A stretch of DNA of 36,290 nucleotides, taken from positions 1-36,290 of the forward strand of contig JAADGS010000065.1 of NCBI GenBank assembly GCA_013152275.1, written 5' to 3'. Position numbers and translations under genes: made by a program. Under the pieces are notes generated by a model. It had not been told where the DNA came from, did not search any database, and was given only the letters and a program-made list of their open reading frames with translations. Shown piece after piece: positions 33,021-36,290 of this stretch (positions are counted from its first letter, which is position 1; every line of letters begins with the position of its first letter). Source of the DNA: Actinomycetota bacterium (lineage in GTDB: Bacteria; Actinomycetota; Acidimicrobiia; Spongiisociales; UBA4744).

Positions 33021-34583
33021 TCAGCGCACCGCAGCCCGCGCCGTGGCAGCCCTCGGATCTGCAGCCGCGCTGCGCAGACCGTCTTCCGCGACCTGGATGA
33101 TCGACACCGGCCCCCAGCCGCGTTCGTAATCCGCCACCCGGCCGACCGTGTGTCCGCGTCGCTCCAGTTCGTCGATCAAGGCATCCGGCGTTCGCCCCTC
33201 GACGTGGAGCCGGGATGACGTCCCCGGGCTCGCGTCGTCGAGTACCCACCGCGGGCTTTCCTGCGCCTGTCGGGGATTCATCTGCGTGTGGAAGAGTGCG
33301 GTCGCCATCTGGAGGAGGAGTTGGGGCTGGTAGTGGCCTCCTCGAGTGCCGAGTACCGTGTCGAGCCGGCCGTTGCGGGTCCAGAGGGTCGGAGAAAGCG
33401 TGTGGAGCGGCCGTCGGCCGGGGGTGAGCTCGTTGGAATGTCCGGGAATCAGATTGAAACCGGCACCACGGTTGTGGAGGAAGAAACCCGCTCCCGACGC
33501 CACGATGCCCGATCCGATCCCCGTGTAATTGGACTGGATGAGCGAGACGGCCATGTCGTCGCGATCGACGAAGCCCAGGTACGCGGTCCCGCCCTGCGCC
33601 GGCCCTGGTTGTGGCCAGGCACCCGCTCGGTTTCGGTCGATGGCGCGGACGCGTTCTCGAAGTCGATCCGGCGCCACGAGGCGATCGGGGGCGAGAGGTA
33701 TCCGGTACGGGTCGGCAACCAGATCGTCACGTTCCCATGCGACCGAGCGGTATGCCTCGACCTGGAGGTGAACGTACTCGCCGTCGATTCGGTCGGTCGG
33801 TGCGTCCAACTGGGAGAAGATCCAGGCCGATGCGAGGGTGAGGTAGCCCTGTGAATTCGGAGGCGTCGTCCAACCGATTCTTCCGAAGACTTCGATAGAG
33901 ACGGGGTCGACCCACTCGGCCTGCTTTGCGGCGAGGTCCTCTGCAGTGATCTGGCCGTGCACCGCGTCGCTGATGGCTTTGCCGGCGGAGCCCTCGTAGA
34001 AGGCCTCCCTTCCCCCGTCGGCGATCTCTCGAAGCGTGTGTGCCAGATCCCGGCGAACCAGGCGGATTCCGGGTGTCGGTGGGTTTGTCGTGAACAACTC
34101 CGGAGCAGCAGGTTCGAGTTGTGCGCTGCGCCTCGTCAGGGCGCCTGCAAGCTCGGCCGACATGGCAAAACCGTCTTGCGCGTACCGGATGGCGGGAGAG
34201 AGCACCTCTGCGAGCGGCATCGATCCGAAGCGGGCGAGAAGAGCGATCCAGCCGTCCACGCATCCCGGAACGGTCACGGATGCGGGGTGATCGAAGGGGA
34301 TGGAGGTGAGACCGGAGCGGCGCAGCGCAGCAGGGTCGACACCCGACCCTGCCCGCCCCGACGCGTTCAGCGTTGCCGGGGTAGCGTCGTCGGGCCGGTG
34401 GACGAGGGCAAACAGGTCCCCCCCGATCCCGCAGGTCTCGGGCGCAACGACGCCCTGGACGGCATTGGCTGCGACGGACGCGTCCACGGCATTGCCGCCG
34501 AGCACGTAGATTTCCATCGCCGCGAGCGTGGCGAGTTCATGCGGTGTGACGGCCACATCGCCGAAGCCCGAAGACGTGGCCAT
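33021..34583 (-). CDS. ggt: Gamma-glutamyltransferase family (Ntn hydrolase)
   Basis: GGNAVDA, GIGGDLF, VPG.VDGW, PPNSQG, autocleavage Thr (GG-TAY), SLIQSNY, NRG, RPLHTLSP, ADPR. Confidence 0.92.
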   Translation of the reverse strand: MATSSGFGDVAVTPHELATLAAMEIYVLGGNAVDASVAANAVQGVVAPETCGIGGDLFALVHRPDDATPATLNASGRAGSGVDPAALRRSGLTSIPFDHPASVTVPGCVDGWIALLARFGSMPLAEVLSPAIRYAQDGFAMSAELAGALTRRSAQLEPAAPELFTTNPPTPGIRLVRRDLAHTLREIADGGREAFYEGSAGKAISDAVHGQITAEDLAAKQAEWVDPVSIEVFGRIGWTTPPNSQGYLTLASAWIFSQLDAPTDRIDGEYVHLQVEAYRSVAWERDDLVADPYRIPLAPDRLVAPDRLRERVRAIDRNRAGAWPQPGPAQGGTAYLGFVDRDDMAVSLIQSNYTGIGSGIVASGAGFFLHNRGAGFNLIPGHSNELTPGRRPLHTLSPTLWTRNGRLDTVLGTRGGHYQPQLLLQMATALFHTQMNPRQAQESPRWVLDDASPGTSSRLHVEGRTPDALIDELERRGHTVGRVADYERGWGPVSIIQVAEDGLRSAAADPRAATARAAVR

Positions 34584-34588
34584 CCGGC

Positions 34589-35197
34589 TCAGCGGCGAAG
34601 CTGTGGCACGTACCGGTTCAAGGCGTCCAGGACCGCCCGCACCGCAGCTTGCGGCAGATCTTGACCGGCAAGCGCCGAGCCGACCATGGCGCGTTCCTCG
34701 CCGCCGGAAACCACGACGACTTGCGCGATGGCGACCGGACGGTTCCCGACGGTCGCTATTTCGAGTGCGGCGAGGGCAAGTCCGATGTCACCACCGATCG
34801 CCTGTTCCAGGGCGTGCAGCGTCGCGTCGCCGACGAGACGCAGGCGAGTCGCCGAGGCGGCAGGCCCGTCCGCCTCTCCGACGAACACTTCGCCCTGCCA
34901 TCCGAGGGAGACCGACGCGGTGATCCTCGTGCCCTGGGGAACTTCCTTGATGTCGAGCACCGCAGGACGTTCACCGGGGGTGCGTTCNNNNNNNNNNNNN
35001 NNNNNNNNNNNNNNNNNNNNNNNNNNNNNNNNNNNNGCCATGGCAAGGGACTGCACGTCACGGACGACCTGCTTGGGCGGTTTCGCCGGTGCAGCCAGAA
35101 CGTGGACTTCGGCCACTCGCCCGTTGTCCCCGACGATGCGCACGGCATCGACCGTGGGGAGGAGACAGAGTGCTTCTTCGAGCTCGCGATACTTCAC
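34589..35197 (-). CDS. Hypothetical protein; C-terminal region resembles the LeuA allosteric domain; spans the N gap 34988-35036
   Basis: GTG 6 nt after TACCCT; EVHVLA...PKQVVRDVQS; duplicated strands+helix units ending ATLHALEQ and AVLDALNR; 5 nt from the ggt start. Confidence 0.8.
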   Translation of the reverse strand: MKYRELEEALCLLPTVDAVRIVGDNGRVAEVHVLAAPAKPPKQVVRDVQSLAMXXXXXXXXXXXXXXXXXERTPGERPAVLDIKEVPQGTRITASVSLGWQGEVFVGEADGPAASATRLRLVGDATLHALEQAIGGDIGLALAALEIATVGNRPVAIAQVVVVSGGEERAMVGSALAGQDLPQAAVRAVLDALNRYVPQLRR

Positions 35198-35276
35198 GGT
35201 GCAAGGGTAGCCTCCGCCGGCAGGCGGGACGGCGTTTTTGTCATACCCTTGAGTAATGGGGGTCTTGACTGCTAAC

Positions 35277-35285
35277 TTATCCACA
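35277..35285 (+). promoter_or_regulatory. Single consensus DnaA box
   Basis: TTATCCACA, 6 nt downstream of a -35-like TTGACT in the divergent intergenic region. Confidence 0.35.
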
Positions 35286-35490
35286 GTCGCCACCTTTGTG
35301 GCGGGTTGGTGCGCTGCCGACCGGTGAGGCTGGAAGAGGGATGCCTCAGCACATGACAACTGAGGTTCCCGGGTAAACCGGGGATATGTGGCGCCCGGGC
35401 TTGCACGATTTACCCCTGAGCTACCAAGCGAAGCGGATTACTCGCCGGCCGAGAGGCTGGTGATTCCAAAGCTAAATTGGAGGACTCAGT

Positions 35491-35580
35491 TTGAAGGGCA
35501 AGATCGTCAAGTTGATCGCAATTGCCAGCAGTCTTGCGGCGTTGATCGTTGCAGGAAGTGCCACCATCAAGATCGGGTGA
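35491..35580 (+). CDS. 29-aa small hydrophobic peptide MKGKIVKLIAIASSLAALIVAGSATIKIG (not in the ORF track)
   Basis: SD ggagg at 35479-35483, TTG start 7 nt later, basic N-terminus, hydrophobic helix, short tail, TGA; the next gene starts 34 nt later. Confidence 0.7.
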   Translation: MKGKIVKLIAIASSLAALIVAGSATIKIG

Positions 35581-35614
35581 GCGGGCAGGTCCGGGACGCC
35601 AATGAGGAGGCCGG

Positions 35615-36290
35615 GTGGCCAGGCGCACAAGTGATACTCGACATGAACGGCGGGCAAAGGCCGTGTTGGCAGCGGTCTACGCGACCCTCGGCGTTGGCGT
35701 GCTTGTCGTGCTGATTATACGTGAGTCCTTTCCGCCTATCGGTCTCTGGCTGGCGTTCGCCGCCGCGTTCGCGTTCCTCGACTGGCGCTCGGTCGAGGTC
35801 AACGATCGCATGCTGATGAGCCCCACGATCATGGTGGCGCTGACAGCAGGGGTGGCGTTCGGTCGGGGGAGTGCGGCGCTCGGCGTGGCAACCATGGCCG
35901 TACTCGGGGCGGTCAGTGCACGTGACGTCAAGAAACGACGCATCTTCCAACCGGTCGCCAACTTCGGACAGATGGTGGTTACGGCCGGGGGTTCGCTCTT
36001 GGTGCTAGAGGCGTTTCTCGCGAAGGCGACCATTGGCAGCGCGTCGTATTGGACGTGGATCGCGATCGGGAGCGCTGCCGCCGCAGTGCTCTACGCGTCG
36101 ATCAACTATGTGCTCGTGGCGTTCGCGGTGCGTACCGTGTTTCGCCAGAACCTCAAGGTCTGGTCGCACCTTGGTGAGCTCTTGCCTTCCTATGTCGCGA
36201 TGGGCTTCGTCGGGGGCCTGCTCGGCGCCACGATCACGCGCACCGAGGTCGTGCTCCCACTCGTGTTCGTCGTGTTCATCATCGGCTATC
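35615..36290 (+). CDS. Polytopic membrane sensor-like protein, N-terminal part (truncated by the window end; possibly an HD-GYP/GGDEF/kinase receptor)
   Basis: SD gaggagg then GTG; open for 225 codons to the end: MARRTSDTRHERRAKAVLAAVY...DWRSVEVNDRMLMSPT...VANFGQ...YASINYVLV...; about 7-8 hydrophobic segments. Confidence 0.8.
   Translation, partial: MARRTSDTRHERRAKAVLAAVYATLGVGVLVVLIIRESFPPIGLWLAFAAAFAFLDWRSVEVNDRMLMSPTIMVALTAGVAFGRGSAALGVATMAVLGAVSARDVKKRRIFQPVANFGQMVVTAGGSLLVLEAFLAKATIGSASYWTWIAIGSAAAAVLYASINYVLVAFAVRTVFRQNLKVWSHLGELLPSYVAMGFVGGLLGATITRTEVVLPLVFVVFIIGY

Follow-up and report, generated by a model that had tools for sequence, protein, structure and literature searches.

The window analysed here (36,290 nucleotides) is the whole of contig C91 of genome G000. 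It contains a gene of 29 codons with a TTG start and a TGA stop (35491..35580, +), recognised by reading the ORF and by comparison at order level, which lies between a divergent partner gene (34589..35197, -) and the 5' part of a receptor gene encoding a MASE9 membrane sensor domain (35615..36290, +) that runs off the contig and continues on contig C52. Translation of 35491-35580 (+) gives MKGKIVKLIAIASSLAALIVAGSATIKIG. The Shine-Dalgarno sequence GGAGG (35479..35483, +), which is partly paired in the predicted RNA fold, is separated from the TTG by 7 nt. A first-pass annotation had placed the peptide at 35479..35580; the end at 35580 is correct, whereas the Shine-Dalgarno sequence begins at 35479 and the real start is the TTG at 35491. 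The basic N-terminus, hydrophobic core, AGSA, TIKIG and six isoleucines that it described in a 29-residue peptide are all present in MKGKIVKLIAIASSLAALIVAGSATIKIG. Codons 21-24 (A-G-S-A; 35551..35562, +) form a predicted processing site, judged by invariance among order-level peptides, and codons 25-29 (T-I-K-I-G; 35563..35577, +) a predicted mature peptide, judged by the tails of relatives. A gamma-glutamyltranspeptidase gene (33021-34583, -) stands directly behind the partner gene, as it does in L007.

The order-level comparison of helix and tail drew on 151 loci, reduced to 125 by removal of duplicates and to 119 by setting aside 6 that were cut too short. Unpublished genomes contribute L015 (G034) and L018 (G023) to the order-level counts (starts, tails, dN/dS, motif, arms and tree), L018 to alignment A1, and L246 (G864) to the cross-phylum, partner and co-occurrence counts; all three loci were excluded from the own-locus duplex test, and no claim hinges on them alone.

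Selection on the peptide reading frame

Among the order-level relatives listed, 62 have ATG, GTG, TTG or CTG at the matching start codon, and the length is exactly 29 codons in 58 of these 62, a count favoured by our script, which took the start nearest to 29. The stop codon is interchangeable between relatives (TGA, TAG or TAA). From 64 distinct order-level peptides of the helix type we formed 27 disjoint pairs, for which dN/dS was 0.21 in frame. The two remaining sense frames gave 1.38 and 2.56, and the antisense frames 1.46, 0.36 and 3.14; the value of 0.36 probably belongs to the frame that shares third positions. Differences at codon positions 1, 2 and 3 numbered 87, 45 and 195. The conservation in related genomes on which the first-pass annotation had made the ORF depend is therefore present: order-level relatives keep the frame, at a dN/dS of 0.21 and with a synonymous bias.

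When dN/dS was calculated by region, the N-terminal end gave 0.21, the hydrophobic helix 0.20, AGxA 0 and the tail 0.60. The AGxA codons have undergone 42 synonymous and 0 non-synonymous changes, and Ala21 and Ala24 are invariant in 64/64 order-level peptides. The tail follows a pattern of two variable residues, then K/R, I/V and G, with its variation concentrated in residues 25-26. The earlier suggestion to look for a conserved or hypervariable C-terminus thus has an answer, i.e. a tail that varies more than the helix (0.60 vs 0.20), as would be expected of specificity variants.

Across the 3.07 Mb genome no more than 11 ORFs, the peptide gene among them, passed a lenient small-ORF rule of the same type as the cross-phylum peptide rule described below, with an added small-residue motif. 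The 29-codon ORF is a real gene, beyond chance, with its translation inferred from selection. Pfam and NCBIfam held no family for the 64 peptides, giving just 1-3 weak scattered matches, and in the ESM Atlas a relative of the peptide and the partner protein fall only in clusters named 'hypothetical protein'. No second copy of the peptide was found in G000.

The tail is kept where the helix is lost

In all 119 untruncated order-level loci the upstream ORF ends [KRS][IVL][GDNST]-stop, with the hydrophobic helix present in 73 and missing in 46. Mapped on a 114-row receptor tree (quick IQ-TREE), the helix/no-helix label changes at least 7 times, compared to a mean of 35 for shuffled labels; all 7 changes are forced by well-supported branches, and part of them could be reversals. 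Of the 46 helix-less loci, 45 have an in-frame start at a distance of 5-15 codons upstream of the stop, vs 8/46 and 7/46 for the other frames. Family f9, whose loci are kin and not independent draws in any of the counts that follow, lacks the helix in 29/29 members and has an in-frame start in 29/29, vs 7 and 3 in the other frames, with a Shine-Dalgarno-like sequence before the mini-ORF in 0/29. The 17 helix-less loci outside f9 have such a start in 16 cases (other frames 1 and 4), and a Shine-Dalgarno-like sequence precedes the mini-ORF in 10 of them. A start-type codon near the stop is also found in 59/73 helix-bearing ORFs, as Leu/Val codons, and the start test is therefore weaker outside f9.

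In 25/25 of the f9 loci compared (4 others, with starts 7 or 15 codons before the stop, were set aside), the codon matching Ala24, sixth before the stop, is ATG (16) or GTG (9). It is followed by S/T/G/N, Trp (25/25), K/R, I/V, Gly and any of the three stops, and the reading frame upstream of it is not maintained. GTG makes up 45% of the Val codons in f9 receptor genes, and a need to pair with U could also account for the alternation of ATG and GTG. Part of the conservation of the tail may be at the nucleotide level, as the Gly29 codon and stop pair in the predicted RNA helix and the Ile/Val codon of the tail ends in C in 25/25 f9 loci.

The leaderless relatives are ORFs of 6-15 codons, e.g. 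MSWRVG, whose start stands where the last Ala of AGxA stood. Removal of Met from MSWRVG would give SWRVG, in register with TIKIG as it would be produced by cleavage after Ala24. The release of a pentapeptide after AGSA, proposed in the first-pass annotation, has gained comparative support from the AGxA codons (0 non-synonymous changes against 42) and from leaderless starts at the last Ala; the cleavage itself is a prediction. Duplications also involve the tail: L028 (NTKIG), L302 (STKIG) and L271/L272 (GWKIG) have two tandem copies of the five-residue unit, and in the sister loci L294 and L298 a full precursor that ends in SARIG is followed by MSARIG as a gene of its own. From these comparisons the tail looks like the working part of the peptide. 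That a leaderless hexapeptide would need some way out of the cell counts against reading it as a ligand. Full-length ORFs of 28-29 codons with charged residues in the former helix and the tail kept occur in L026, L044 and L056, which are possible intermediates of helix loss; the charged frames of L026 and L056 likewise weigh against the ligand reading.

The receptor

The receptor ribosome-binding site (35604-35610, +) adjoins the 3' arm of a long-range RNA helix described below. Contig C52, to which the last ~90 bases of the receptor fragment in the window are identical, encodes the HD-GYP-type domain of the receptor, followed by a gene for a second, degenerate membrane HD protein. At the start of C52 (G000:C52 21831-22465, -), the first ~540 bases are an 80% identical variant of the receptor 5' part, joined out of frame; the assembly has probably fused sequence from a related strain here.

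The receptor fragment has matches in 31/41 relatives and 86/301 class genomes. Pfam gave no match on the window's own fragment; among 14 receptor orthologues it identified MASE9 (PF20972) in 7 and HD_5 in all 14, and L003, which is 72% identical to the window fragment, scored 26.8 for MASE9 against a cut-off of 24.3. The HD metal-binding core, as read on C52, is present (IHD, HH, ADAFD). As the receptor has GYG instead of GYP and RSYR instead of the RxxK specificity motif, we class it as HD-GYP-like; its substrate is not certain because of these replacements, and its hydrolysis of c-di-GMP is a prediction. HdgA, despite its RxxS, still hydrolysed c-di-GMP (10.1101/2021.11.05.467447).

We used an AlphaFold model of the membrane part of the receptor (pLDDT 93.5) for structure comparison. 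In a wide VIA structure search, ranks 1-14 were all ECF transporter structures with the S-component fold, the best match having a Z of 13.2 (borderline for helical bundles, as is any Z near 13) and an rmsd of 3.3 over 158 residues. Foldseek also ranked the ECF S-component family first, yet gave no match at E<0.001. MASE9 is therefore predicted from the model to have the ligand-pocket fold of ECF S-components, which hold small ligands within a lidded pocket. Complex prediction for peptide and MASE9 scored 0.13 and 0.10, against a mark of 0.32, and was counted neither for nor against binding. The preprint defining MASE9 inferred intramembrane ligand binding; in the portion of it available no ligand is named, and the word 'peptide' has 0 occurrences in its main text (10.1101/2021.11.05.467447).

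Occurrence of the peptide with MASE9 across phyla

MASE9 matches were found in 102/301 Bacillota and 118/301 Actinomycetota genomes sampled. We took the best-scoring 30 MASE9 loci of each sample and applied a rule for a basic-hydrophobic-AG(G)A-tail ORF that required a ribosome-binding site. Such an ORF lies directly upstream of MASE9 at 27/30 Bacillota and 19/30 Actinomycetota loci, the rule failing at the other 11/30 of the latter; at class level, 12/13 weaker loci also have such an upstream peptide. Trp is present within the last five residues of 41/48 of these peptides and an AG(G)A-like site in 39/48, and the tails of the Bacillota peptides end 0-4 residues apart relative to the stop. Three of the peptides precede MASE9 histidine kinases, and the link is therefore to the sensor domain and not to the output.

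The whole peptide gene is present in 2-3 copies at L228, L231 and L238, a copy number that points to a product active in trans. The peptides of these three loci and of L230 end GIC(S/G)TVRW, with Cys six residues from the end, and their loci are without the RNA motif and partner gene; from its sequence, this type is a possible cyclic variant. At L235, L236 and L237, which are MASE9-HD loci with the AGCG motif, the rule found no peptide, and short or divergent ORFs may be missed.

The RNA element and the partner gene

The RNA element and the divergent partner gene were absent from the first-pass annotation. A fold of window 35385-35620 has a z of -5.29 and pairs 35389-35415 with 35575-35601. 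The 5' arm of this predicted long-range helix (35389..35415, +), which is supported by the fold and by duplex tests, and its 3' arm (35575..35601, +), which takes in the Gly29 codon, the stop and the spacer to the receptor ribosome-binding site, enclose the peptide gene. The motif AGCGAAGCG (35427..35435, +) lies ~60-75 nt before the peptide start and is conserved across phyla, making it a candidate protein-binding site. Between the motif and the peptide ribosome-binding site there is a predicted hairpin (35442..35463, +), whose loop is GAGA in the window vs a UAGCG type in many relatives.

AGCG(A/G)AGCG is invariant in 41/41 aligned order-level loci, and a relaxed pattern matches 70/71 order, 10/11 class, 25/28 Bacillota-type and 10/19 other Actinomycetota loci; the strict motif has a chance expectation of 0.003 per 130 nt in G000. 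A hairpin is usually found 3' of the motif, with a median z of -1.7 in the order and weaker values outside it.

In each of the five groups, cognate arms of the long-range helix pair ~7-11 kcal/mol better than arms combined from different loci of that group (e.g. -41.5 vs -31.0 kcal/mol). The cognate duplex beats all 7 own-locus controls at 83/145 loci, where 1 in 8 would be expected. The case for the helix rests on these duplex tests because the stems align badly and formal covariation is thin: MAFFT, applied to 41 loci, brought the variable stems out of register, and the long-range core of 8 pairs that RNAalifold recovered from 18 close loci has changed on both sides at no more than 2 of them. 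A pairing of the AGCG motif with Ala codons, also given by RNAalifold, was set aside, as loci that have lost the Ala helix still have the motif. The covariance models of Rfam 15 gave no credible match in the window at E<=10. In 8 related loci at E<=0.1 they matched only tRNAs, apart from one miRNA model that stayed below threshold; for want of an Rfam match we discarded resemblances to SAM-IV, TPP and ykkC riboswitches.

Upstream of these elements, TGCTAACTT (35270..35278, +) is a possible extended -10 promoter, suggested by its conservation in the family; a consensus scan for promoters and terminators returned 0 of either and did not call it. The sequence TTATCCACA at 35277-35285 (+), which we take to be a DnaA-box-like 9-mer, overlaps this possible -10, and relatives have TTATCCACA or TTGTCCACA, a few of them degenerate. 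TGACAAC-TGA(A)GG with a hairpin (35356-35370, +), upstream of the long RNA helix, is conserved in the order; TGACAAC was rejected by eye as a -35 box, there being no matching -10 at the right spacing. At L188 and L250, where the partner gene is co-directional, the similar TTGACAAC/TTGATAAC is the end of the partner gene.

In the partner protein, a small alpha/beta domain at the N-terminus is followed by a C-terminal domain like the regulatory domain of LeuA/citramalate synthase. In a model of an orthologue (pLDDT 90.4), the C-terminal domain resembles this regulatory domain with a Foldseek E of 1.9e-5 and a Z of 9.0, and the N-terminal domain matches common folds only; a PDB sequence search with the partner gave one weak match (E 0.041). 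Homologues stand beside 130 loci, and the module has this neighbour in both Actinomycetota and Bacillota; most Actinomycetota have it in divergent orientation, whereas in a few of them, as in Bacillota, it is co-directional and upstream. Outside the class, the 45 peptide loci compared, which are kin and not independent, have both motif and partner gene in 33 cases, neither in 8 and only one in 4. The partner protein may bind the AGCG-repeat RNA.

Interpretation of the module

On balance we lean, if only slightly, towards a processed pentapeptide (TIKIG) as the ligand of MASE9, with output set post-transcriptionally. The basic and hydrophobic part would carry the peptide into the membrane, where signal peptidase or an intramembrane protease would cut after Ala24 (or Ser23). 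The tail would then enter the S-component-like pocket of MASE9, from the outer face or from the bilayer, and its binding would alter c-di-GMP breakdown by the HdgA/HdgB-like pair. The long-range RNA helix and the AGCG repeat, probably bound by the partner, would set the level of translation of peptide and receptor.

If the 29-residue peptide instead stayed intact, it would be a small membrane protein packing on MASE9, with A-G-x-A as a helix-packing motif and the tail as a contact loop. Small-residue motifs suit helix packing, a precursor that releases five residues would be an unusually short signal-peptidase substrate, and the helix is under purifying selection (dN/dS 0.20); ligand binding by MASE9 has also been proposed to be intramembrane (10.1101/2021.11.05.467447). 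However, the helix is missing in 46/119 loci, including all 29 of f9, through 7 changes on the tree with the tail kept, and the duplications copy the five-residue tail and not the helix. An uncleaved helix bound to the receptor in the membrane, which the first-pass annotation had offered as an option, fits poorly with such repeated loss, and we consider it improbable that the intact peptide is the active form. The same annotation had suggested a regulatory uORF, on the strength of its Ile, Leu and Val codons. The peptide has 6 Ile as well as Leu and Val codons, and domains of the type found in the partner bind Leu or Ile in solved structures; nevertheless, there is no run of cognate codons, the Ile columns are freely replaced, mini-ORF relatives have one Ile or none, the scan found no terminator, and the downstream gene encodes a signalling protein. 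We therefore give hardly any credence to an attenuator leader peptide sensing Ile/Leu/Val.

What survives of the uORF suggestion is a role in cis through RNA structure, a live rival to the pentapeptide ligand even though we judge it unlikely. In that case a ribosome ending at the stop would open, or be gated by, the long-range helix that abuts the receptor ribosome-binding site, the partner on the AGCG repeat would exert control, receptor synthesis would be switched, and the peptide itself would matter little. The fold that encloses the ORF (z = -5.29) and partly pairs its ribosome-binding site, the better pairing of cognate arms (83/145 beating all controls), the joint occurrence of motif and partner gene (33 both, 8 neither, 4 discordant) and the free shrinkage of the ORF are all consistent with this. 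Such coupling, though, does not need selection at the amino acid level on the helix and AGxA, and 8 loci keep the peptide without motif or partner, some in 2-3 copies. The tail-stop distance also differs by 0-4 residues in Bacillota, unlike a fixed termination stall, and the hydrophobic, basic and Trp chemistry recurs (Trp in the last five residues of 41/48). A ligand and control in cis are compatible, and each reading may hold in part.

More broadly, and with a somewhat less than even chance of being right, the loci may represent a cross-phylum system in which a sensor derived from the S-component fold of ECF vitamin transporters reads peptides of 4-6 residues and is coupled to cyclic-dinucleotide enzymes or kinases. 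A long RNA helix would enclose the peptide mRNA, which would be gated by a new protein that binds the AGCG repeat and has an amino-acid-regulatory domain. Starting as a secreted precursor, the signal would have been reduced repeatedly to a gene of six codons, which would rank with the shortest functional genes known. If this is true, peptide signalling is tied to c-di-GMP turnover via one membrane protein, the S-component fold gains a peptide-reading role, and six-codon genes have been born repeatedly from a signal-peptide precursor. MASE9 is a widespread sensor for which a ligand is now proposed, and the candidates TIKIG, SWRVG and SFRWG are cheap to test.

Comparison with known systems

We found no description of the peptide or the RNA in the literature covered, outside which lie most subscription papers and the supplements of the MASE9 preprint (Figure S5). 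The module behaves like a pro-peptide/receptor pair, yet falls outside the RRNPP, Agr and LCP systems when tested for membership. As described in the part of the source available, the RRNPP pro-peptides (Phr, PapR, SHP and the enterococcal pheromones) share with it a short precursor with a secretion-signal-like start beside a likely receptor, and an active C-terminal part of 5-8 residues, predicted likewise here (PMC10518010). The likeness to Phr and enterococcal pheromones drawn in the first-pass annotation therefore holds for the architecture but not for the receptor type: the window has no adjacent TPR-fold receptor, its neighbours being a LeuA-regulatory-like protein and the MASE9 protein i.e. 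a membrane sensor of S-component fold with an enzyme or kinase output in place of a cytoplasmic TPR regulator. The SIP/LCP-RopB leaderless peptides of streptococci provide, in the same partial source, a precedent for a signal from an ultrasmall ORF without a leader; LCPs mostly consist of 8-10 hydrophobic residues and act on cytosolic RopB (PMC10518010). Unlike these, the relatives described here have 6-15 codons with a basic residue, and forms with and without a leader are intermingled on a single tree. A leader is present in the window peptide, whose leaderless relatives stand beside MASE9 and not RopB.

In AgrD-AgrC and ComC-ComD, a small peptide gene is next to that of a polytopic membrane receptor. 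In contrast, the window peptide has no Cys and no acidic double-glycine leader, and the receptor has another fold and a second-messenger output; AgrB was not found in G000 (100% complete), and none of the 64 peptides has an AgrD-type match in NCBIfam. MgrB-PhoQ likewise ties a tiny hydrophobic ORF to a membrane sensor, whereas the hydrophobic part here is dispensable in many relatives. Compared to attenuators, the locus has no conserved run of cognate codons, no terminator/antiterminator and no biosynthetic operon downstream.

The receptor has the same order of domains (MASE9, then an HD-GYP-type domain) as T. maritima TM1467 and S. venezuelae HdgA, for which the accessible portions of the literature make no mention of a peptide, RNA element or partner gene (10.1101/2021.11.05.467447; PMC6205966). 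In S. venezuelae, HdgA is accompanied by the degenerate HdgB, as a degenerate membrane HD protein follows the receptor here; the receptor differs from TM1467 and HdgA in its GYG and RSYR. HdgA and HdgB are membrane-bound, and according to the available text their mutants had no developmental phenotype, for which the want of an activating signal is perhaps the reason (PMC6205966). Inspection by eye of 10 Streptomyces hdgA loci revealed no such peptide or RNA motif, which speaks against a general association of the peptide with MASE9. Upstream of Streptomyces hdgA (L146-L183) there is a conserved CACTCG(A/T)ACGTGCTAATC, ~90 nt before the gene, which has TGCTAA in common with the possible promoter of the window.
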